The position numbers and the translations under genes are program-made. From positions 8,692 to 72,691 of the forward strand of contig VMEU01000003.1 in the NCBI GenBank assembly GCA_007375675.1: a DNA stretch of 64,000 bases, written 5' to 3'. Below the pieces are notes generated by a model, which did not search any database, was not told where the DNA came from, and saw only the letters and a program-made list of their open reading frames with translations. Positions 1 through 56,382 of this stretch are shown piece after piece. Position 1 is the first letter of the stretch. Each line of letters starts with the position of its first letter. This DNA comes from Parcubacteria group bacterium Greene0416_39 (GTDB taxonomy: Bacteria; Patescibacteriota; Minisyncoccia; Minisyncoccales; UBA10102).

Positions 1-969
1 TTTGGCGTTGGCATTCCACCCAGGGTTATTGGCAAAAAAATAGGGGAAACCATATATTCTTTGAATCTTTTGCCCATTGGAGCTTTTGTGAAGCTTTTAG
101 GGGAAGAAAAAAGCATGAAAGACCCCAGGAGCTTTAGCGAGAAATCCCTATTTCAGAAGGTTGTTATTGTGGCAGCAGGAGTTGTTGCCTTTTGGCTGTT
201 TTCTATCGTGACGTTTATGATCTTGGCAGCAAGTTCTGGCATTCCAATGGCAGTTGAAGATGAAACGACACAAAGAATATCAAATTCTCATGTTCAAGTT
301 GTGGGAATAGCTCCTGATTCTCCCGCAAAAGAGGCAGGTCTTAAACTTGGAGACAGGATTGTAGAAGTTGTCTCGCGAGAGGTAGACAAAGTAAGCGAGG
401 TGCAAGAGGCAACAGAAAAACTAAAAGGCAAGGAAGCAACTTTTACTATTCAAAGAGGAAAAGAAACATTACAAGTAAACCTTGTGCCAAGAGCAGATCC
501 TCCTGAAGGGGAAGGCCCTATGGGAGTGGCTTTGTCTCGGCAAGCTTTTGTGCACTATAGCTGGTATGAGGCGCCTGTTCAGGGTGTTGTAATAACAGCA
601 AGGGTGACCTGGGAGATAATTCAACAGCTTGGAGGCACGCTTGCAAGGGTGTTTGCAGGTAAGGGTCTTCCAGGAGGCATTGACGTTGCAGGGCCCATTG
701 GTATTGTGCAGATTCTTTCAGGTTCTCTTGCTTTGGGCCTGCCTTCTTATCTTTCGTTTCTTGCAACTCTTTCTATTTACCTTGCTTTGTTTAACATTCT
801 TCCCATTCCCGCAGTAGACGGCGGGAGATTGTTCTTTTTGGGTTTGGAGTTTTTGAGAAAGAAACCTCTTTCTGAAAAGTTTGAAGGCCGCGTAAACGCA
901 GTTTCTTTTGGCATTCTCATTTTCATCTTGCTCGCCGTCACCTTCCGCGACCTCACCAAACTCTTTTAG
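1..969 (+). CDS. rseP: RIP/site-2 metalloprotease RseP, C-terminal part (5' end outside window)
   Basis: Frame 1 is open from base 1 (FGVGIPPRVIGKKIGETIYSLNLLPIGAFVKLLGEE). PDZ-like GIAPDSPAKEAGLKLGDRIVEV. C-terminal TM helices with NILPIPAVDGGRL. Confidence 0.85.
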   Translation, partial: FGVGIPPRVIGKKIGETIYSLNLLPIGAFVKLLGEEKSMKDPRSFSEKSLFQKVVIVAAGVVAFWLFSIVTFMILAASSGIPMAVEDETTQRISNSHVQVVGIAPDSPAKEAGLKLGDRIVEVVSREVDKVSEVQEATEKLKGKEATFTIQRGKETLQVNLVPRADPPEGEGPMGVALSRQAFVHYSWYEAPVQGVVITARVTWEIIQQLGGTLARVFAGKGLPGGIDVAGPIGIVQILSGSLALGLPSYLSFLATLSIYLALFNILPIPAVDGGRLFFLGLEFLRKKPLSEKFEGRVNAVSFGILIFILLAVTFRDLTKLF

Positions 970-1073
970 TGCGTCATTCATTATACATACGTTTATCTAA
1001 GTAAGCAGCGTTTTTGCGCAAGAGTGGGTATGCCAGGCGTTGCGCTTACTTATTGAACTCGCACCACAAATTC

Positions 1074-11946: not shown

Positions 11947-12492
11947 ATGGCTAAACAACAGCTTGCCCAAGAAAGAAACTGGTACGTCATTCATACCTAT
12001 TCAGGGTATGAAGACGCGGTAGCAAGAAACCTCAAGCAGAGAATTGAGTCTTTGGGCATGCAAGACAAAATCTTTTCTGTTTTGGTTCCCAAAGAAAAGA
12101 AAATCAAAATCAAGAATGGGAAGAGAAAGCTCGTGGAAGAGAAAATTTATCCAGGATACGTGTTAGTTGAGATGATTGTTACCGATGATTCTTGGTATGT
12201 GGTGCGCAACACGCCAAACGTGACAGGATTTGTGGGTTCTGGCACCACGCCAATTCCTGTGGAGACGGCAGAGATTGAATCTTTGAAGAAACGCATGGGC
12301 GTGGATGAACCTCTCTACCTAATTGAAGTGGAGCCAGGAGATGTGGTAAAGATAACAGACGGGCCCTTTCGCGACTTTGAAGGCAAGGTTTCCAATGTGG
12401 ATCAGGAACGGGGCAAGGTAAAGGTGCTGGTGAATATGTTTGGCCGAGATACCCCTGTTGAGTTAGATTCCCTGCAAATTAAGAAGTTATAA
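11947..12492 (+). CDS. nusG: transcription termination/antitermination factor NusG
   Basis: WYVIHTYSGYEDAV NGN domain and KOW (GDVVKITDGPFRDFEGKV). Confidence 0.93.
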   Translation: MAKQQLAQERNWYVIHTYSGYEDAVARNLKQRIESLGMQDKIFSVLVPKEKKIKIKNGKRKLVEEKIYPGYVLVEMIVTDDSWYVVRNTPNVTGFVGSGTTPIPVETAEIESLKKRMGVDEPLYLIEVEPGDVVKITDGPFRDFEGKVSNVDQERGKVKVLVNMFGRDTPVELDSLQIKKL

Positions 12493-28077: not shown

Positions 28078-28518
28078 ATGGCTTCACGACACCTCGCACG
28101 ATCTATTTGTATGCAATCCTTGTACGAATGGGATTTTTTTGGGAAAAAGCAAGGCGGATTAGACTCTATTATAGAAAGAAACATCAAAGAGTTTGGCCCA
28201 GGGCTGGACGAATCAAATCAGCAGTTTGTGCGCAATCTTGCAGAAGGCGTGTTAGAACACCTCCCCCAGCTTAATGCCATTATTGAAAAAGCTGCTCCCG
28301 AATGGCCTCTTAACCAAATTACCATTGTAGACAGAAACGTTCTCCGCCTGGGGCTATACGAGCTTCTCTTTGGAGATAAAGAGGCGGTTCCTCCTAAGGT
28401 TGCCATCAACGAGGCCATTGAACTCGGCAAAAACTTTAGCGGTGAGAGTTCGGGCAAGTTTGTGAACGGAGTGTTGGGCACGGTATTCCGGGAAACGCAA
28501 GAACAAACAAATCTATGA
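28078..28518 (+). CDS. nusB: transcription antitermination factor NusB
   Basis: [18 protein letters not shown]...NGVLG. Confidence 0.9.
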
Positions 28519-29210
28519 AGGATCTTTCATTATTAGAAAAAAAACTAAAGGTAGAGTTTTCAGATAAGTCGCTTTTGAGAAATGCGTTCACACACCGATC
28601 GTACCTAAACGAAAACAAAGATTTTGATGGGAAGCACAACGAACGCCTGGAATTCCTTGGAGACGCAGTGCTGGAGCTTGTGGTGACAGAGTACCTGTAT
28701 AAGAACTACCCCGATAAACCAGAGGGTGAGTTAACCACCTGGCGGGCAGCGCTTGTTAATGCAAAAATATTGTCTGCAACCGCAAAAGAGCTTGAATTCA
28801 ACGACTATCTGTTGCTCTCAAAGGGCGAGGAAAAAGAAACTGGCAAGGCAAGAGACTATATTTTGGCAAACTCGTTTGAATCCTTTCTGGGCGCCCTGTA
28901 TCTTGACCAAGGCTTTAAAGTATGCGAAAAGTTTATAGCGAGGCACCTTTCCCCCAAGCTCCCCCATATTCTTGAAACAAAGGGGTTTGAAGACGCAAAG
29001 TCCCGCTTCCAGGAAATGGCCCAGGAAAAGGAAAGCACTACCCCAAACTACAAAACCTTGGAAGAGTGGGGGCCAGACCATGCAAAGCATTTTAAGATAG
29101 GCGCGTTTCTCAATACAGAATTAGTGGCAGAAGGGGAGGGATCTTCAAAACAGGAAGCAGAGGAAGACGCGGCAAGTAATGCCTTGAGAGTAAAGAAGTG
29201 GGCATTTTAG
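28515..29210 (+). CDS. rnc: ribonuclease III
   Basis: [21 protein letters not shown] signature and a C-terminal dsRBD. Confidence 0.93.
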
Positions 29211-29238: not shown

Positions 29239-29601
29239 ATGCTAGTCATACGCTTACATCGCACGGGAAGGAAGAATTATCCTTCATATAAAATCGTTGT
29301 GACGGAAAAACAAAAATCCTCAACCAGAGGCCGTTTTGTGGAGCAAGTTGGATTTTACAATCCCGCAAACAAAGAAAAAATACTGAAAGGGGACAGGATA
29401 AAATACTGGATTTCAGTGGGAGCCCAGCCCTCCGCAACCATTCACAACCTATTAATACAGGAGAAAGTGATTGAGGGCAAAAAAATCCCCAAGCACAAAA
29501 AATCCAAGAAACCCGCCCCCACTCCTGTTGCGTCTCCTTCCTCACAAACACCTCCTGCCGTTCCCACTCCTCCCACGCCACCCCCTACGGTGGCTGCTTG
29601 A
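29239..29601 (+). CDS. rpsP: 30S ribosomal protein S16 with Pro-rich C-terminal tail
   Basis: MLVIRLHRTGRKNYPSYKIVV...GFYNP. Confidence 0.93.
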   Translation: MLVIRLHRTGRKNYPSYKIVVTEKQKSSTRGRFVEQVGFYNPANKEKILKGDRIKYWISVGAQPSATIHNLLIQEKVIEGKKIPKHKKSKKPAPTPVASPSSQTPPAVPTPPTPPPTVAA

Positions 29602-29626
29602 CAATTCCCAAAGTCCATGCTATACT
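29598..29626 (+). promoter_or_regulatory. sigma70 promoter TTGACA-17-TATACT
   Basis: TTGACA at 29598-29603 overlaps the rpsP stop. TATACT at 29621-29626. Confidence 0.65.
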
Positions 29627-29673: not shown

Positions 29674-29955
29674 ATGGATGATTACAATACCATGGAGGGA
29701 CTGATCACCAAACTGACTGGCTCTTGGATGACTGGCTCGGAACAGGGGACAGTCTCTCCGGTGGCGTTCATGGAAGCGCTAGAAATCCTCGGGAGGTTGC
29801 AGACCTCAGTAAGGAGTCGGCACTCCGAGTTGGAGGAATTCGTTGCTGCTCCAACGCCGGATAAAGCCACCGTCCTTCTTGCGTCAATAGAAGAGGCTCG
29901 GAAAGAAGGACGGACTCGTATGGCCCGGCTGGAGGAACTGGGACCTCCGATCTAG
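29674..29955 (+). CDS. hypothetical protein (93 aa)
   Basis: GC-rich ORF after a consensus promoter. No family recognised. Confidence 0.5.
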   Translation: MDDYNTMEGLITKLTGSWMTGSEQGTVSPVAFMEALEILGRLQTSVRSRHSELEEFVAAPTPDKATVLLASIEEARKEGRTRMARLEELGPPI

Positions 29956-30146
29956 CAAACAGGGCGAGGGAAGAGAGTCTAAACAAAAAAAGACTCGCTA
30001 GTACCTCGCCTACACACTTGAGTCTCGAACAGAAGTTGGAGCTTCAAGTGTGTGGAAAGTTCTTTGAGAATATTGTGTAATGAGTGACCTGCTGTTCGTG
30101 AACCATTCGTGACCAGCAGGGCGCTCATTCAAATATAAAGGGGGTC

Positions 30147-30575: not shown

Positions 30576-30742
30576 TTGACCACCACCTAACCACAAGGTT
30601 GCATAAACCATCCAGGGGGAATCTTCTGAGGGTCCGAGCGCCAATCTTCAGGAATTCCCCCCGATCCCTTAAGCCCAAGGCTAGGCCTTGTGCCAATGCC
30701 GTGGGTTTAAGAGATTGGAAGTTCTTTCAAAAGTCTTCACAA

Positions 30743-30822
30743 CGGCGAAATGGACATTAGCTAGAAACACTCAAGAATATGACTGATTGGAGTGAAAGAC
30801 AGAGTTAGTGTTCATCTCGCCG
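30743..30822. repeat. long-hairpin repeat B, copy 1
   Basis: CGGCGAAATGGACATTAG (30743-30760) pairs over 18 positions (1 mismatch) with TTAGTGTTCATCTCGCCG (30805-30822). Same arms as copy 2, different interior. Confidence 0.6.
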
Positions 30823-30857
30823 CTCTGGAGAAAATCTGGCGTGAAAGGAGGTGTCGC

Positions 30858-30932
30858 ATGGCAGACCGCGGCATTTGCGACCAATGCGGGAAGGTCCGCA
30901 TATTAATTCACAAAGATGGGAAGGAAAAGTGA
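30858..30932 (+). CDS. 24-aa CxxC mini-ORF
   Basis: AAAGGAGG then ATG. MADRGICDQCGKVRILIHKDGKEK. Directly follows repeat B1. Confidence 0.3.
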   Translation: MADRGICDQCGKVRILIHKDGKEK

Positions 30933-31031
30933 AGCAAGAGGAGAGTTGATAAGCGTAAGTTTCTCAATTCTACCCTCGCTTCAGAAATGTTCTTTCTCTG
31001 AAATTTATAGCGAGGAAAGGAGGTGAGGACC

Positions 31032-31307
31032 ATGGGCTTGGACCTAGGTCTCTACCTCAGGAAGGAGGAAGGGAGCTTCTTCGTAGGTTCCACGAACTTA
31101 TCAAGTGGGGGCAAAACCCCCATGCGAGAGTTCACGAACCTCGAGGAGGCCCTAGCGTTTGTGCAGCTTGAGCGAATCAGGCTGCCCTACGAGGACTTTG
31201 ACGTGGCAGGCTTTGCCACGTACAAGAAAGTTCTCCACGCAAGGATCAACTCGGAAGTCAGCGAAGAGCTGGCAGAAGAGTTGTCGGCTGCCCTTGAGAA
31301 CGAGTAG
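31032..31307 (+). CDS. hypothetical protein (91 aa)
   Basis: AAAGGAGG 8 nt before the ATG. No family recognised. Confidence 0.5.
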   Translation: MGLDLGLYLRKEEGSFFVGSTNLSSGGKTPMREFTNLEEALAFVQLERIRLPYEDFDVAGFATYKKVLHARINSEVSEELAEELSAALENE

Positions 31308-31377
31308 CCGTCCTTTCCAAAGGGGGGAGAGTTACCGGTTCGCAAAAGCATTACGCCAAGCGAATCCTCCCCCCTCT

Positions 31378-31413
31378 CCATCAAAGTTCACAAACATTTG
31401 CGGATTCTGATGG
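31378..31413. repeat. hairpin repeat A, copy 1 (diverged)
   Basis: CCATCAAAGTTCACAAACATTTGCGGATTCTGATGG, preceded by the GGGGGGAG...CTCCCCCC stem. Confidence 0.55.
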
Positions 31414-31446
31414 GGGAAAATAAATCTGTAAGTGGAGAAAGAAACA

Positions 31447-31779
31447 ATGCCCCTAGCAGAACTTTTGGAAAAAAGATACGGCAATAAGTATACGTACCTT
31501 CACATCGGCAGAACATCCAACCTCACGTTTTTGAAGCCAAATAGGTTTCACATACAAGGTCGTCTTCCTACCTTTTGGGTCTTTGTGACAACTGTGGAAT
31601 TCGTCTGCGAGTGGGCGATCTTTATAGGCGAGCTTGGCCCAGCCTACCTCTATGGGATCCGCGAACAAGATCTTCCTCCTAACTACGCGCTCGAGGAAGG
31701 AATCAATGGCTGGGATCGTGGCGATATACGGATTGTCACAGAACACCTAATTCCCGTTACATACCTAAGAGAAGTTTAG
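31447..31779 (+). CDS. hypothetical protein (110 aa)
   Basis: ATG at 31447 after GTGGAGAAAG. No family recognised. Confidence 0.5.
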   Translation: MPLAELLEKRYGNKYTYLHIGRTSNLTFLKPNRFHIQGRLPTFWVFVTTVEFVCEWAIFIGELGPAYLYGIREQDLPPNYALEEGINGWDRGDIRIVTEHLIPVTYLREV

Positions 31780-31843
31780 TTTTCTCTAAAGGAAGACTTT
31801 ATGGGGCGTGAAGATATGCACTTCAATTACTGCACGCCCCTCT

Positions 31844-31884
31844 CCATCAAAGTTCAAGAAACTATTTCGTGGATTTTGATGGGG
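31844..31884. repeat. hairpin repeat A, copy 2
   Basis: CCATCAAAGTTCAAGAAACTATTTCGTGGATTTTGATGGGG, identical over 41 nt to copy 3. Preceded by the GGGGCGTG...CACGCCCC stem. Confidence 0.7.
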
Positions 31885-32000
31885 TTAGAATCAAAGTCTT
31901 GATTCTAACGGGCAAATTAGTGAGCTTTAACGAACGTTAAAATTTGCCCTGGGGTTTGCGAAAGCAAACTACCTTACATCCCAGAGCACTTTTACACAAA
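31885..32000 (+). ncRNA. candidate structured RNA segment (unclassified)
   Basis: Back-to-back perfect hairpins: TTAGAATCAA/TTGATTCTAA. GGGCAAATT/AATTTGCCC enclosing TTTAACG/CGTTAAA. CTGGG...CCCAG enclosing GTTTGC-GAAA-GCAAAC (GNRA loop). No ORF. Confidence 0.35.
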
Positions 32001-32008
32001 CTTCATAG

Positions 32009-32093
32009 CGGCGAAATGAACATTAGTTAATTCAGGACCACAAGTTATTGATTCGTTACAGAGATCCAAAGAGAATTAGTGTTCAGCTTGCCG
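32009..32093. repeat. long-hairpin repeat B, copy 2
   Basis: CGGCGAAATGAACATTAG (32009-32026) / TTAGTGTTCAGCTTGCCG (32076-32093). Confidence 0.6.
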
Positions 32094-32114
32094 CGGTGGA
32101 GTGCTTCAAAAGAA

Positions 32115-32207
32115 TTACTGCTTGCGGGGTTTGGGATTGTAGAGGAAAGCCACCGTAATCATTAGTATACCCACGAGAACCCCGACGATTGTAAGAAGAG
32201 TAGTCAT
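32115..32207 (-). CDS. 30-aa single-TM micro-protein
   Basis: MTTLLTIVGVLVGILMITVAFLYNPKPRKQ. Third ORF of a tight tandem. Confidence 0.4.
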   Translation of the reverse strand: MTTLLTIVGVLVGILMITVAFLYNPKPRKQ

Positions 32208-32212
32208 GTTAT

Positions 32213-32311
32213 TTATTGTTTAGCATTTTTTGCGATGATAAAAATACCAAGACTTACAAGTCCGATAATAATATATGCAAGAAGAAGTTGATCAGTAATA
32301 GTAAAGTTCAT
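32213..32311 (-). CDS. 32-aa single-TM micro-protein
   Basis: MNFTITDQLLLAYIIIGLVSLGIFIIAKNAKQ. Lies 4 nt after the 63-aa ORF. Confidence 0.4.
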   Translation of the reverse strand: MNFTITDQLLLAYIIIGLVSLGIFIIAKNAKQ

Positions 32312-32315
32312 ACGA

Positions 32316-32507
32316 TTATTTTTGTAGGTAAATACTTATTACAAGCGTACCCATCGCAACAGTTGCCCCAACCATAAATACAGAAAAGGGAACCGATCCG
32401 ATGGCCGTAGGCACGAAGAACCCAATCACGGTAGAAGCAACTAAGATTTTGGAAATATCAGAGAAATACTTTGAGAGAGCATCAACCTGTTGATTGTTCA
32501 ATATCAT
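32316..32507 (-). CDS. 63-aa two-TM membrane protein
   Basis: MILNNQQVDALSKYFSDISKILVASTVIGFFVPTAIGSVPFSVFMVGATVAMGTLVISIYLQK. Confidence 0.5.
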   Translation of the reverse strand: MILNNQQVDALSKYFSDISKILVASTVIGFFVPTAIGSVPFSVFMVGATVAMGTLVISIYLQK

Positions 32508-32516
32508 GATACTTTG

Positions 32517-32546
32517 AGTATAGAAGTTTTATATCAATGATGTCAA
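32517..32546 (-). promoter_or_regulatory. promoter TTGACA-18-TATACT, 9 nt before the ATG (near-leaderless)
   Basis: Reverse complement of 32541-32546 is TTGACA and of 32517-32522 is TATACT. Confidence 0.6.
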
Positions 32547-32907: not shown

Positions 32908-32951
32908 AGAAGGGTTCCGCTGGAGACCAGAAAGGAGAATCCATCCAGCAC

Positions 32952-32992
32952 CCATCAAAGTTCAAGAAACTATTTCGTGGATTTTGATGGGG
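32952..32992. repeat. hairpin repeat A, copy 3
   Basis: 41 nt identical to 31844-31884. Preceded by the GCTGGA...TCCAGC stem. Confidence 0.7.
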
Positions 32993-32993
32993 C

Positions 32994-33023
32994 TTGACAC
33001 TTCTCTTGAATCTACGATACGAT
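32994..33023 (+). promoter_or_regulatory. candidate promoter TTGACA-18-TACGAT for the KH gene
   Basis: TTGACA at 32994-32999 immediately after repeat A3. Confidence 0.45.
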
Positions 33024-35887: not shown

Positions 35888-35961
35888 AGGGGTGTGGTGA
35901 AGTGGTATCACGAAGGTCTCCAAAACCTTCGTCGGAGGTTCGATTCCTCCCGCCCCTGCCA
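35888..35961 (+). tRNA. tRNA-Trp (CCA), CCA encoded
   Basis: AGGGGTG TG GTGA AGTGGTA TCAC G AAGGT CTCCAAA ACCTT CGTC GGAGG TTCGATT CCTCC CGCCCCT G CCA. Confidence 0.9.
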
Positions 35962-36100
35962 GGCACCATACGGCACCTGGCCAGATGCAAGACTGTATCT
36001 GGCCAGGCACAATTCTGCGCCTGGCTACGCCAATTGGCTTAGCCAGAAGCAGAATTGGGACTGTGGGAGGTGCCGACTGGTACCTCCCCAGTTTTTAGTT
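35962..36100. repeat. GC-rich hairpin array (left flank of the GIY-YIG gene)
   Basis: GGCACCATACGGCACCTGG. CTGGCCAGAT/ATCTGGCCAG. CAATTCTGC/GCAGAATTG enclosing CTGGCTA/TAGCCAG. GGGAGGT/ACCTCCC. Confidence 0.55.
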
Positions 36101-36112
36101 GATAATAAGGGA

Positions 36113-36373
36113 ATGAAATTCTACTACGTTTACGTTCTACGTAATAAACTTAAGAATTTTACTTATATTGGATACTCCGAGAATCTTCAGCAAAGGTTCC
36201 GCGAACATAATGAAGGTAAATCGAAATCTACAAAACATTACGTTCCTCTAGAACTTATTCACTATGAAGCATACAGAAACAGTAGAGACGCAAAGCGGCG
36301 AGAGGAGTATCTCAAAACAAATCGCGGCAGAACAACTTTGATGACAATGCTTAAGGAGTATTTTGCCAATTAA
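36113..36373 (+). CDS. GIY-YIG nuclease-family protein (86 aa)
   Basis: FYYVYVLRNKLKNFTYIGYSENLQQRFREHNEGKSKSTK...YLKT. The track ORF 35894.. reads through tRNA-Trp and is not accepted upstream of the ATG at 36113. Confidence 0.8.
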   Translation: MKFYYVYVLRNKLKNFTYIGYSENLQQRFREHNEGKSKSTKHYVPLELIHYEAYRNSRDAKRREEYLKTNRGRTTLMTMLKEYFAN

Positions 36374-54165: not shown

Positions 54166-56382
54166 CTACTTCAGGTTTTTGCCGCTGTGGAACTGGCGGT
54201 GGACATCACGAAGCTGTTTTGAAGTCACGTGAGCGTATATTTGGGTTGTAGCTGGATTTTTATGCCCCAGGAATTCTTGGATTAACCGAAGGTCTACCCC
54301 CTGCGAGAGAAGGTCGGTGGCAAAGGAGTTATGGCTTATAAACCCATCAGTGATAAGGTTGCCATGCCATCTACTAATGCCAAAGTCATATACCGAATAA
54401 CGAGGCGAAGAAGAAACTTTCGTTTTTTCATGGAGCTTCAACCATTGAATGGTATCTGCATACGCAATCTTTTTTAACTGGGCCAAGTACTGGGAATTGT
54501 AGCCAGCGTCTTCTAGTTGCTGTACAATATGTTGCACAGTTTTGCGGCTTGGGTTGAGTTTTTCTATGTATCTGCCTATATCGTTGATGCTGTAGTTTCT
54601 CCGCAAGGCCTGGATCCACTGAATCTTTTTTCGTGTTGTATCCTTTCGTATGACTTCAAGGAGCGGTCCCACTGGTAGTTTCTGGCCCTGGAAATGTTTT
54701 TCTACGTTCAGAAAACGTCTTTTGAATGTTTTTATGTGTTCCAAAAATAGCTCCTGATCCGGTTTGTGGAGGATATGGAGCGTATAAAATTTGTGGGAGA
54801 ATAAACGCTTTTGAGGCAATATTACTGTTCTATTGCGCCAGTTGAGATGGGAGTCTATTCCAAACCTCAAGAGTCCCATTTGAACGTCTTTAAGGAGTTC
54901 TACGCTTGAAGAAAATATCCTTATATTGCCCGAGTTTCCTTCGGCATCGTAGAATCCTGCGAGAAACTCGGCTAGTTCGTTCAGTGGCGCAGAAAGCATT
55001 TCCTTGGGCATTCGTCGGCCATTAGCGCCTGGTTCAAAACCAATCTGGAGTAGAAACTCCACAAGCTCGGCGTTATAAACAGTAAGCTGCCAAGAGTTGC
55101 TGACTTTACTTTTTTTTAGGGTTGGGACGACATAGAACAATTCATTAATCCAATTCATATAACTCTTGAGCATCTCTTTGTTTTTGTCTGTAAGAAGAAC
55201 CGCGCGCCTAGCTCTACTTACCGTACCGTCTCCGTAGATATACCCAAGGATTCTTGCAAAACGGGGATGTACGAATGGCTTTCCTTGGATTGTTATCTTT
55301 TTCACTCCCATGACGTAGTCACCAATCTTTAGCTCCCTTGCTTGTTTTTCTTCTATGCCTTTTTTCCCTATCGTGAAAAGTCTGTGATTGGGGGAACAAA
55401 GAAGGTTATAGCCACCAGCCCATAAAGAAAGGAGAGGAGTAATATGGTAGCTTCGCTCTTTCAGAGTAAGATTTTGGAATTGAAAACCTGCCCATTCGAG
55501 TGCCTGAACTTCTGCGGACGTTTTAAAATATAAATCCCGTGCCGATACAATACCATCACGTAAAACTATTCGCGTGGTAGGGGAGAGGCAGTGGCGCAAC
55601 GTATGAGGAGTGGTAAAAGAGGGGACACCCGCACGGAGTGCGTATTGCTTCACGATATTCTCAATAGAACGGGCGGAGAGTCGTTTTGAGGCGTTTTTTG
55701 GCCCCCTGTAATTGATGAATAAGGGTTTTTCATCGTCTCTCCGGGTCTTAAGATATTCCTTGAGAGCGTTTACGGCACGCTCCGAAAAGTAGACTGGGCG
55801 AACTCGCCCACCCTTTCCGGTGATTACCACTTCAAGCTGCGTAGTATCGGAAGATATCTTGATCTGTTCTCGGTCAAGACTCACAAGTTCCGCCACCCGC
55901 AGGCCCGTAGAGAAGAAACTTTCGAGGATCGCACGATCCCGCAGTCCTGCATTTGTGGAAGAATTGGGTGCCGCGAGAAGTTTCTTGAGCTGTTCGAGAT
56001 TTAAAAACTTTACTTTGCGTTCTTCTTTTTCCCGGATAAGTTTTATTTTATCTGCTGGGAGAGAAAGAATGTTTCGTTCGGTAAAGAATGACAGCAGGGA
56101 TCTTACAGCTATAAGATAATAGTTCTGCGTAGAACGCTTCAGAGGTTCTTTAGTAGTCTTGTGGAGGGTTTGAGAAAGAAAGAGGCGATAGTCCCAGATG
56201 TGCTGGTCGTCAAGCTCGTGAGGTTTTAGGGATTGGAGGTTTTGTGAGGAAAACCAATCAGAAAATTTTTTTAAGAATCTTGCGTATGTTTCCTGGCTTT
56301 TGTATCCCAAACCTTTCTCAACGTCACAATATTCAAGAAAATCTTTTATATGTTCAGTAATGGTTTTTTTGCTTTTTTGCAT
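54166..56382 (-). CDS. Xer/phage-integrase-family tyrosine recombinase containing an intein
   Basis: Exteins are residues 1-264 and 686-738: SAM-like N-domain, STGLRVAELVSL, TPHTLRH | SFATDLLSQGVDLRLIQEFLGHKNPATTQIYAHV. Confidence 0.88.
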   Translation of the reverse strand: MQKSKKTITEHIKDFLEYCDVEKGLGYKSQETYARFLKKFSDWFSSQNLQSLKPHELDDQHIWDYRLFLSQTLHKTTKEPLKRSTQNYYLIAVRSLLSFFTERNILSLPADKIKLIREKEERKVKFLNLEQLKKLLAAPNSSTNAGLRDRAILESFFSTGLRVAELVSLDREQIKISSDTTQLEVVITGKGGRVRPVYFSERAVNALKEYLKTRRDDEKPLFINYRGPKNASKRLSARSIENIVKQYALRAGVPSFTTPHTLRHCLSPTTRIVLRDGIVSARDLYFKTSAEVQALEWAGFQFQNLTLKERSYHITPLLSLWAGGYNLLCSPNHRLFTIGKKGIEEKQARELKIGDYVMGVKKITIQGKPFVHPRFARILGYIYGDGTVSRARRAVLLTDKNKEMLKSYMNWINELFYVVPTLKKSKVSNSWQLTVYNAELVEFLLQIGFEPGANGRRMPKEMLSAPLNELAEFLAGFYDAEGNSGNIRIFSSSVELLKDVQMGLLRFGIDSHLNWRNRTVILPQKRLFSHKFYTLHILHKPDQELFLEHIKTFKRRFLNVEKHFQGQKLPVGPLLEVIRKDTTRKKIQWIQALRRNYSINDIGRYIEKLNPSRKTVQHIVQQLEDAGYNSQYLAQLKKIAYADTIQWLKLHEKTKVSSSPRYSVYDFGISRWHGNLITDGFISHNSFATDLLSQGVDLRLIQEFLGHKNPATTQIYAHVTSKQLRDVHRQFHSGKNLK
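54328..55590 (-). mobile_element. 421-aa intein with LAGLIDADG homing-endonuclease domain
   Basis: Cys1 codon TGC at 55590-55588 (CLSPTTRIVLRDG). CSPNHRLF block B. ILGYIYGDGTV and FLAGFYDAEGN. Terminal ..GFISHN (AAC at 54330-54328) followed by Ser+1. Confidence 0.85.

Follow-up and report, generated by a model that had tools for sequence, protein, structure and literature searches.

The two look-alike hairpins on the + strand of the window (the whole 64,000-nt stretch of DNA analysed here), B1 and B2, belong to a strongly conserved family of RNA stem-loops from Parcubacteria (CPR bacteria). Because the hairpin stands behind a BoxA-like motif and ahead of tiny accessory genes, it is most likely a signal for control or processing at the transcript level, not a jumping element. 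We put at about even the chance that B1 and B2 are two copies of a conserved Parcubacteria RNA module that would act in cis, through BoxA and RNase III. To our knowledge, almost no regulatory RNAs have been described in CPR/Patescibacteria, whose genetics is not easily done. The family is an easily recognised RNA element, conserved in sequence and structure, and it precedes the ORFan micro-genes that constitute the variable islands of Parcubacteria genomes. It also appears to be connected with two universal machineries, Nus factors and RNase III.

Both hairpins are real and very stable, and the letters quoted for them in the original prediction stand where it placed them. B1 (30734..30831, + strand) has a 14-bp lower stem, a bubble of A.C and A-U, and 12-13 bp of upper stem (AUGGACAUUAGCU/AGUUAGUGUUCAU); its apical domain is of type 1, with the inner stem CACUC/GAGUG. 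B2 (32000..32103, + strand) shares the lower and upper stem, carries a type-2 apical domain, and is 86-87% identical to positions 15-116 of locus L040 and 181-282 of L053. As + strand RNA, B1 folds at -36.4 kcal/mol (z -5.6) and B2 at -36.0 kcal/mol (z -6.0); folding of the - strand is weaker (-30.4 and -23.2 kcal/mol, respectively). The arms had been said to pair over 18 positions, which is slightly generous, with 17/18 paired in B1 (fourteen Watson-Crick pairs and three G.U, plus one A.C) and 16/18 in B2 (thirteen Watson-Crick pairs and three G.U, plus one A.C and one A.G). That a G-to-A change in B2 makes A-U out of a G.U pair was correctly described, and the similarity noted outside the arms, CTTCA(C/T)A on one side and (C/G)TGGAG on the other, is real. 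Since these 5' and 3' sides base-pair with each other, the helix is lengthened to about 26 bp. With up to three mismatches, the 18-mer arm occurs three times in the window (both 5' arms and the reverse complement of the B1 3' arm), compared with 0.10 expected from shuffles. The interiors of B1 and B2 do differ completely, as described, yet both are conserved types that recur elsewhere. The reported positions relative to genes also hold: B1 sits 26 nt before the ATG (30858) of the 24-aa CxxC ORF, and B2 abuts the 3' end of the micro-protein operon, which lies on the minus strand (32115-32507). The stretch between the two holds three ORFs and other hairpin families.

The original prediction proposed scanning for further copies, and pattern scans together with a covariance model found about fifty more distinct ones. 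B1 itself scores 96 bits against the model (E 1e-19) and B2 72.5 bits (E 5e-14). Eight matches came from genomes, all of them Patescibacteria MAGs, and about thirty-five true loci from metagenomes, to which the covariance model adds further diverged copies; every named source genome is a Patescibacteria MAG. By the covariance model, this genome has only two copies in about 84 kb, 1.3-1.4 kb apart, and same-strand arrays of 2-3 copies are spaced by 560-2200 nt. The apical type of B1 (AGAAACAYUC-loop-GRRUGMAAAACAG, with a covarying 5-bp inner stem) is present in more than twenty-five other copies, and that of B2 (UUAAUUUGAUCUGCAAGUUUAGAUUCAUUACAGAGAUCCAAAGAGAA) in about ten. No Rfam 15 family matched B1 or B2 at the gathering score, and the sole match at E up to 10 was MIR2670, a hairpin-shaped chance match at 18 bits against a gathering score of 117. 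The further copies likewise match nothing in Rfam. We found no earlier description of the family in the literature searched. Three patterns run against viral contigs returned only terminator-like short perfect palindromes and, at the end of one contig, a solitary 5' arm, none of them convincing under the covariance model.

The lower stem common to all copies is 14 bp long, (C)UUCAYAGCGGCGA / UYGCCGCURUGAAG, and above it come a 2-nt A-rich bubble and, in nearly all copies, an upper stem of 8-13 bp. The recognition pattern of the family is GCGGCGA-AA-UGNNC ... GNNCA-NN-UYGCCGC. Its geometry (14-bp lower stem, 2-nt bubble, at least nine paired positions above) is identical in 50/53 copies. Three pairs above the bubble are invariant (U-A at +0, G-C at +1 and C-G at +4), and the remaining upper-stem positions show up to five pair types. 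The sequence of the upper stem can be wholly replaced with pairing kept, as in at least nine different upper-stem sequences, all paired, and many family members have the entire upper part swapped for unrelated short stems. Compensatory changes also maintain the stem, as in L017 (GCGGCG/CGCCGC to GCUGUA/UACAGC). Across copies, thirteen pairs carry double changes, and the covariation score was reached by 0/500 shuffles; 87% of cells are paired, versus 38-45% in slid controls. Readings of the conserved core as a K-turn, attC core, dif-like or tRNA-like sequence were dismissed on inspection.

The folding strand is the sense strand. Wobble pairs in the core helix are 118 G.U versus five A.C, and at 11/11 syntenic loci the hairpin has the same sense as the backbone genes, both of which indicate RNA. 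Between loci L011 and L014, the hairpin plus leader is 80% identical, with compensatory changes in the inner stem, compared with 65% for the neighbouring khpA-trmD; identity above that of the flanking genes suggests that the hairpin is under purifying selection. Together, compensatory changes, strand-specific wobbles and sense orientation support the suggestion in the original prediction of an RNA whose stem is the functional part.

The hairpin is associated with a BoxA-like motif (GUUCUUUGAGA), which lies 3-5 nt upstream of the hairpin foot in about 20/25 copies. Letters for the module's motif include AGUUCUUUGAGAAAAU, AGUUCUUUGAGAA and GUUCUUUGAGAA. In B1 the motif is GTTCTTTCAAA (30721..30731, + strand), a 10/11 match to GYTCTTTRANA, 3 nt before the foot; in B2 it is GCACTTTTACA (31986..31996, + strand; 9/11), 3-4 nt before the foot. 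A second motif, GTGCTTCAAAA (32101..32111, + strand; 9/11), overlaps the 3' foot of B2 and is homologous to AGTTCTTTGAGAGAAT, which precedes the same micro-protein block in L040. The gamma-proteobacterial BoxA consensus is GYTCTTTAANA (PMC5725501). Scored against GYTCTTTRANA, from which the host's own rRNA-leader BoxA may differ, fifty copies gave seven matches at 11/11, eight at 10/11 and twelve at 9/11, with control windows at 0.3%, 0.7% and 5.6%, respectively; at least 10/11 positions matched in 15/50 copies (0.9% of control windows) and at least 9/11 in 27/50 (6.5%). Position 8 of the motif is G rather than A. Gram-positive BoxA likewise has G at this position; the literature searched held no usable Gram-positive BoxA strings. 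Nearly half of the copies reach only 6-8/11 within 40 nt, and a common variant, GCACCUUGAGA, is changed at two positions. The 11-mer with one mismatch is not enriched over the whole window (forty found versus thirty expected), and no rRNA genes were found in the window, in the loci examined or in the 10 kb beyond one window end. The assignment as a BoxA stays putative, resting on an 11-nt resemblance. A sigma-70 promoter reading of the motif, with TTGAGA as -35 or TGAGAAAAT as extended -10, was rejected, because a usable partner hexamer is lacking and a start site after the motif would exclude the outer stem, which covaries.

A second hairpin, 'module C' (CGAUCCCUUAAGCCCA ... UGGGUUUAAGAGAUUG; 30661..30718, + strand), occupies a boxB-like position 5' of the B1 motif. 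It folds at -32.7 kcal/mol (z -5.6) and is, including its interior, 82-90% identical in L047 and L011. The same layout is built from unrelated hairpins at a sister junction (30010..30130, + strand; fold z -6.4), which consists of a hairpin (30010-30055), a BoxA match with zero mismatches (GTTCTTTGAGA, 30059-30069) and a long hairpin (30079-30130), followed by a Shine-Dalgarno sequence (SD) and a 78-aa ORF (30147). The original prediction had missed this conserved second hairpin before the motif, as well as the motif and the conserved interior types.

The hairpin is linked to the nusB-rnc-rpsP neighbourhood. In the window, the backbone operon directly upstream of the island contains nusB (28078-28518, + strand; Pfam NusB, 4e-33) and rnc, encoding RNase III (28515-29210, + strand; Ribonuclease_3 and a dsrm double-stranded RNA-binding domain), and nusG lies at 11947-12492. 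The products of nusB and rnc are the predicted trans-factors of the module. The backbone rnhB-rpmF-nusB-rnc-rpsP-khpA-trmD is present in at least eleven hairpin-bearing loci, and about one third of independent loci lie inside it, at four different junctions. Behind the B1 leader come an SD (AAAGGAGGTG, 30844-30853) and the 24-aa CxxC ORF (ATG 30858, stop 30932), together spanning 30844..30932 on the + strand; in roughly 60% of copies the next 100 nt or so contain an SD and a start codon. The 24-aa ORF belongs to no Pfam family, a homologue search with the 110-aa ORF returned nothing, leaving it an ORFan, and searches of the island ORFs against Pfam and PHROGs gave only a weak DUF6722 match. 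Anti-SD pairing of the upstream flank with the SD is good in B1 (UUCUUUCA with UGAAAGGA) and is not general across copies.

The hairpin is probably transcribed, judging from signals predicted around several copies. Canonical promoters are predicted 10-60 nt upstream in L047_1, L050 and L051. In L010, a predicted TTGACA-17-TGnTATACT stands about 7-10 nt before the stem and a predicted intrinsic terminator follows directly; this copy has no BoxA and resembles a stand-alone small RNA or attenuator. In both L010 and L019 the hairpin stands ahead of genes that include nusB and rnc.

On our best reading, the parts would form a nut-like or rrn-leader-like module, combining a NusB/S10 site with an RNase III-type stem. 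Its order would be fixed (upstream hairpin, single-stranded BoxA-like motif, B hairpin 3-5 nt on), and it would be transcribed within the leaders and intercistronic spacers of small accessory genes. The motif may load NusB/S10 onto the elongating polymerase, as in lambda nut sites and rRNA leaders, and so keep transcription running across long, structured, poorly translated stretches. The B hairpin would be the partner structure, a helix of about 26 bp with a sequence-conserved core surrounding the 2-nt A-rich bubble, above which the stem continues for one helical turn. Recognition may be by a protein, with RNase III the most plausible candidate; its cleavage at the bubble would then part the mRNA of the downstream small genes from the upstream transcript, the variable apical domain serving as cargo or spacer. 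We infer a functional BoxA, cleavage of the stem by RNase III and an effect on expression. If the BoxA reading is true, Nus-dependent antitermination extends well beyond rRNA in reduced genomes, and the read-through of long, highly structured, barely translated operons would be explained. The family also offers a putative RNA-protein pair that can be tested.

Comparison with known Nus-dependent signals shows both likenesses and differences. In lambda nut sites a hairpin follows boxA, and rrn leaders have the order boxB-boxA-boxC, with boxC part of the RNase III stem (PMC6614801). The Parcubacteria module shares with both a linear BoxA-like motif (compare GYUCUUUAANA) at a fixed short distance from a hairpin. 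As in rrn leaders, an extra hairpin stands upstream of the motif, cf. the order boxB-boxA, and the 5' strand of a long duplex begins right after it, as boxC does; moreover, nusB and rnc are encoded next door. In contrast to nut and rrn signals, the module lies outside rRNA operons and phages, in tandem before tiny protein genes. Its duplex encloses only 20-60 nt rather than the whole rRNA, the boxB of lambda is with 15 nt a much shorter hairpin, and no N-like protein was identified. BoxA also occurs in the mRNA leaders of suhB and of a ParE-like toxin gene in Citrobacter, a precedent for control by Nus factors outside rRNA (PMC5725501). There too the genes are non-ribosomal, some of them accessory genes of toxin-antitoxin type, and their start codon is within tens of nt of the BoxA (PMC5725501). 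Unlike our module, those leaders have no conserved long hairpin and the BoxA is <50 nt from the start codon; here the hairpin is interposed.

RNase III hairpins have a helix of at least about 20 bp, often with an internal loop where the enzyme cuts, and the B hairpin has 14 bp, a 2-nt bubble and 8-13 bp. Bubble-bearing hairpins of about two helical turns are known from the RNase III signals of the T7 early region (R1.1, for example) and from the rnc leader of E. coli. T7 R1.1-type signals likewise lie between the short cistrons of one operon and, being paralogous like the B hairpins, have a sequence-related core in common. In L010 and L019, as in E. coli, it is an rnc-containing operon whose leader carries the hairpin. 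The B hairpins differ in having no sequence similarity to these signals, and their cleavage is putative. RNase III of model organisms has weak sequence specificity; the sequence-conserved core may therefore be read by a different protein.

It is unlikely that the family is instead a mobile palindromic repeat (similar to MITEs, REP/REPIN, ERIC or Correia elements) that spreads from one intergenic site or genome to another, with any RNA effects as side effects. The arms are inverted repeats, as at the ends of a MITE, around a variable interior, and the element is 55-110 nt long, sits at different junctions of the conserved backbone and is located in islands of ORFan small genes. Near-identical copies occur in genomes whose housekeeping proteins are only 55-80% identical, and near-identity of the upper stem across such genomes could reflect horizontal spread. 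L053 has an orphan 5' arm beside a full copy and, relative to L040, the window has a 960-nt indel that starts exactly at the B2 3' foot. However, the MITE-like element of the original prediction is unsupported, because target-site duplication, dispersal and an adjacent transposase or integrase are all absent. Identical 4-mers flank only 2-3 of 38 copies, and both flanks are A-rich. The two copies in this genome are clustered, and elsewhere the copies form tandem groups of 2-3 without dispersed bursts. The window has no transposase, and no locus examined has an IS with the same ends as the B hairpins. An IS200/RAYT-like Y1_Tnp gene does lie about 5 kb past the right window end (L059 2273-2992; E 2e-7), but it is not flanked by B hairpins and the covariance model found no copy across the 21-kb locus L059. 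Constant sense orientation, strand-specific wobbles, fixed spacing to the upstream motif and compensatory changes between syntenic copies better conserved than their housekeeping neighbours also argue against mobility. ERIC/IRU, Correia and REP/REPIN elements are intergenic, are transcribed and form imperfect palindromes about 100 nt long, as the B hairpins do. The B family resembles ERIC, Correia and REP in its conserved ends, internal variants and conservation above that of neighbouring genes, but differs in its very low copy number, clustering and constant orientation, and has neither target-site duplications, a flanking RAYT or transposase, nor a sequence relation to them.

Also unlikely is that the hairpin is itself the product, either a small trans-acting or protein-sponging RNA or the precursor of an excised apical domain, with cis copies as extra operon-embedded genes. 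The predicted promoter, hairpin and terminator of L010 would make a unit of about 115 nt, there are few apical types, these and the internal-loop nucleotides are conserved, and sequence conservation exceeds that of the flanking genes. Most copies, however, have no promoter or terminator of their own and lie 25-60 nt ahead of an SD, and no target complementarity was found. Since the upper part is so often replaced by unrelated short stems, the conserved part is the base and not a cargo.

We consider it quite unlikely, too, that hairpin-BoxA-hairpin junctions are portable units of expression and exchange, with micro-gene cassettes swapped between Parcubacteria by recombination at the hairpin feet. 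Such a system would be integron-like with no known integrase, and every cassette (ORFans, hicAB, membrane micro-proteins) would either come with its own antitermination/processing signal or be inserted behind one. Genes between two hairpins are sometimes antisense (L049, L053 and also downstream of B2), which fits cassette boundaries better than leaders. Very unlikely is the related idea that the hairpin is an attC-like single-strand recombination site bounding micro-gene cassettes in an integron-like array whose integrase is not recognised. The B hairpins do share with attC a conserved stem base, a variable top, better folding of one strand, and same-strand arrays with cargo of small ORFan genes, hicAB pairs and membrane micro-proteins, inverted at times, and the indel relative to L040 begins at a hairpin foot. 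On the other side, the arms have no RYYYAAC/GTTRRRY core sites (R/L), and no integron integrase was found in the window or larger loci. The sole tyrosine recombinase, Xer-like and bearing an intein, is encoded 22 kb away. Recombination of attC uses the bottom strand, whereas here the better-folding strand is the coding strand. Moreover, B1 and B2 are separated by three ORFs and other hairpin families, the apical domains are conserved as types, and one copy has its own predicted promoter and terminator. The covariance model is a handle for locating Parcubacteria accessory-gene islands.

A generic structural element with no specific partner (a 5' stabiliser or factor-independent terminator/insulator) would suit the very stable helix and the position of B2, where transcription units converge and no canonical terminator is near, but is highly doubtful given an invariant core of about 20 nt and a fixed motif spacing, neither of which a generic stabiliser needs, and a stem with no U-tract after it. 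Finally, in about 12/52 copies the 3' strand could form an alternative hairpin with a downstream NNNAGCGAG segment, and complements of at least 6 nt were slightly more frequent in cognate (17%) than in non-cognate (10%) combinations, a weak difference (p 0.036).

The sequences quoted for B1 (30734-30831) and B2 (32000-32103), two plus-strand hairpins, were confirmed at their coordinates. Their arms, which were predicted to pair over all 18 nt, pair at 17 of 18 positions in B1 (three of them G.U) and at 16 of 18 in B2. The flanking similarity (CTTCAYA and (C/G)TGGAG) is real and its two sides pair with each other, so that each hairpin has about 26 bp of helix, outer flanks included. The plus-strand RNAs fold at -36.4 kcal/mol (z -5.6) for B1 and -36.0 kcal/mol (z -6.0) for B2, and the minus strands fold clearly more poorly. 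The arm pattern was found three times in the window, where 0.1 occurrences would be expected. Rfam gave no match at B1 or B2; the family is missing from Rfam 15, and no description was found in the literature searched.

Scanning genomes and metagenomes identified further copies in both. A two-arm pattern found eight loci in the genome collection, and with a degenerate pattern 44 loci were recovered from metagenomes, of which about 35 are genuine. Positions left free in the degenerate pattern are mostly unchanged in real copies, and the changes are from G.U to A-U. Wherever the source genome is named, it is a Patescibacteria MAG (Parcubacteria, Paceibacterota, Wildermuthbacteria, and a single 2-kb contig binned as Saccharibacteria); viral contigs contained no convincing copy. 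Trained on 41 distinct copies, a covariance model picked up a dozen additional diverged copies within the same loci.

Of 53 copies, 50 share one geometry. Its base is a lower stem of 14 bp ((C)UUCAYAGCGGCGA / UYGCCGCURUGAAG), above which come a 2-nt bubble (5' AA opposite a variable 3' K,Y) and then U-A, G-C, N, N, C-G, where the three named pairs are invariant in 50/50 copies; the upper stem runs on to 8-13 bp. The upper stem of B1 and B2, AUGRACAUUAG/UUAGUGUUCAU, is simply the commonest of at least nine sequences, all of them paired. The interiors of B1 and B2, originally described as unrelated, do differ from each other, but apical domains sort into a few conserved types across the family, so the two are conserved subtypes. 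B1 belongs to type 1, with a covarying 5-bp inner stem (CACUC/GAGUG, CAUUC/GAAUG, CGCUC/GAGUG), and B2 to type 2. About a quarter of copies (e.g. L012_1, L042_1, L053_3, L006, L005, and L034; L numbers denote loci outside the window and suffixes the copy), a set with weak statistics, also have a short segment, NNNAGCGAG, 4-10 nt 3' of the hairpin. It copies the 5' strand, can pair with the 3' strand and, once the RNA is cleaved, could fold into a small 5' hairpin. A segment of this type is also present at 30975-31017.

The original prediction offered two readings, a MITE-like element or an RNA whose stem is the functional part. The first is unsupported: no target-site duplications were found, the roughly 84 kb covered of this genome contain only two copies, and the window has no transposase or integrase except a Xer-like tyrosine recombinase 22 kb away (54166-56382, minus strand), which is split by an intein carrying a LAGLIDADG homing-endonuclease domain. 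There are signs of modular shuffling, including tandem hairpin arrays, genes that run antisense to the two hairpins on either side (L049, L053), and an orphan 5' arm in L053. In addition, B2 and the neighboring micro-protein block are 86-87 per cent identical between the window and L040, which carries two additional ORF units (960 nt) that start exactly at the hairpin 3' foot. The L053 orphan arm (CTTCACAGCGGCGAAATGG) lies about 45 nt upstream of a full copy (924-1013, minus strand), has its own BoxA-like motif, and may be a recombination scar. About 5 kb past the right window end, contig VMHA01000002.1 (L059 2273-2992) encodes a 239-aa, possibly RAYT-like protein with an IS200-like Y1_Tnp domain (E 2e-7). 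Against a transposable element, no B hairpin flanks this gene or is near; a 12-nt inverted repeat lies just upstream.

The functional-stem reading is supported by covariation, sense-strand folding, and conservation. None of 500 shuffles reached the covariation score. In the 41-sequence alignment, 87 per cent of cells pair versus 38-45 per cent with slid partners, and thirteen pairs show double changes; copy L017_2, for instance, has GCUGUA/UACAGC in place of GCGGCG/CGCCGC. The core helix contains 118 G.U cells and five A.C cells, which identifies the plus strand as the folding strand, and in 11/11 syntenic loci the hairpin is in sense orientation to the backbone genes. Its junction varies by genome (before rnhB, rnhB/rpmF, rpsP/khpA, or khpA/trmD). 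Housekeeping proteins are 55-80 per cent identical between hairpin-bearing genomes. Between L011 and L014, khpA-trmD DNA is 65 per cent identical and the hairpin plus leader 80 per cent, with a compensatory change in the inner stem; between L047 and L011, module C (a hairpin preceding the B hairpin) plus the 5' arm is 90 per cent identical and rnc-rpsP 66 per cent. Conservation above that of the flanking genes is what a constrained RNA would show, although horizontal transfer could contribute to it. Downstream of the hairpin in L011 (4055-4200) and L014 (14150-14350), a structured leader of about 190 nt (AGACGUCUUCCUCCGGACGUCU, GGCGAUUCCGCCUCAUCGGCGGAUGCC ...) is conserved up to the start codon, and the ORFs that begin there are not the same in the two genomes.

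A motif, AG(U/C)(U/A)C(U/C)UUGAGAAAAU, precedes the hairpin foot by 3-5 nt in about 20 of 25 copies. The BoxA consensus of gamma-proteobacteria is GYTCTTTAANA (PMC5725501). The upstream motif matches this consensus, with G at position 8. G at position 8 also occurs in Gram-positive rrn BoxA. In the 40 nt upstream, 15/50 copies have a match of 10/11 or better to GYTCTTTRANA versus 0.9 per cent of control windows, and 27/50 have one of 9/11 or better versus 6.5 per cent. Allowing one mismatch, the 11-mer shows no enrichment over the whole window, so the motif belongs to these junctions rather than being a general promoter-like word. Upstream of it lies another conserved hairpin, which is module C (30661-30718) at B1 and family A at B2. 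The island around B1 and B2 has three copies of family A (CCAUCAAAGUUC ... GGAUUUUGAUGG; 31371-31415, 31843-31883, 32951-32991), and further ones lie in Parcubacteria loci L012, L035, L042, L045, and L053, invariably with the BoxA-like motif downstream. Because differences between its stem and that of module C are compensated, the two may be one family. The same layout of hairpin, BoxA, hairpin, and Shine-Dalgarno is repeated at 30010-30130, with hairpins unrelated in sequence to A, B, and C, a perfect 11/11 BoxA match between them (GTTCTTTGAGA, 30059-30069), and a 78-aa ORF next; the whole stretch folds at z -6.4.

In lambda nut, boxA is followed by a hairpin; rRNA leaders have the order boxB, boxA, boxC, and boxC there supplies a strand of the duplex that RNase III processes (PMC6614801). 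The B-family junctions are compatible with both. About one-third of independent hairpin-bearing contigs, gathered by hairpin pattern alone, fall within the 8-kb backbone encoding NusB and RNase III. Shared ancestry accounts for part of this association; four different junctions are used, and in L010 and L019 the hairpin is ahead of genes including nusB and rnc. The best-supported mechanism, about which we are evenly balanced, is a nut-like or rrn-leader-like module serving small accessory genes. The structural and comparative observations are demonstrated; we infer that the BoxA-like motif would be the NusB/S10 site and the long stem with its conserved bubble core a likely target of RNase III or another protein.

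In L010, a predicted promoter (TTGACA-17-TGnTATACT) ends 7-10 nt before the GUGGCG stem and a predicted intrinsic terminator is directly 3' of the hairpin. Canonical promoters are likewise predicted a few tens of nt upstream of several other copies. About 60 per cent of copies have a Shine-Dalgarno and start codon of a small ORF within about 100 nt downstream, and these ORFs are unrelated; as predicted, B1 lies upstream of a 24-aa CxxC ORF, which its leader serves.

B1 and B2 sit in a 3.3-kb island of small ORFs that interrupts a conserved housekeeping row (rnhB, rpmF, nusB, rnc, rpsP, [island], khpA, trmD). No Pfam or PHROG family matched the island ORFs, and a search of 5.8 billion proteins returned no homologue of the 110-aa ORF that lies between B1 and B2. 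Canonical sigma-70 promoters directly after rpsP (29598-29626, 11/12, TG present) and ahead of khpA (32994-33023) indicate separate transcription starts for the island and for khpA. Convergent with B2 is a minus-strand operon (32115-32546; sigma-70 promoter, 11/12, at 32546-32517) for micro-proteins of 30, 32, and 63 aa with a TM helix and basic tail, which look like type I toxins; the 63-aa product weakly matches DUF6722. The block is 86 per cent identical to L040 1078-1579 over 503 nt, and homologues in L049 and L005 are antisense between two hairpins. Pairs of hicA/hicB toxin-antitoxin genes adjoin B-family hairpins on several independent contigs in either orientation (L002/L037/L038, L045, L053; also L016, L034). 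Two assemblies of this genome are identical over the 12 kb compared, except for an in-frame 39-nt indel at about 29686 (ORF 29674-29955; product 93 or 106 aa). Further along, a GIY-YIG domain ORF (35894-36373) overlaps the tRNA-Trp gene (35888-35961); the ORF probably begins further downstream and may represent a homing-endonuclease-like gene within the tRNA cluster.
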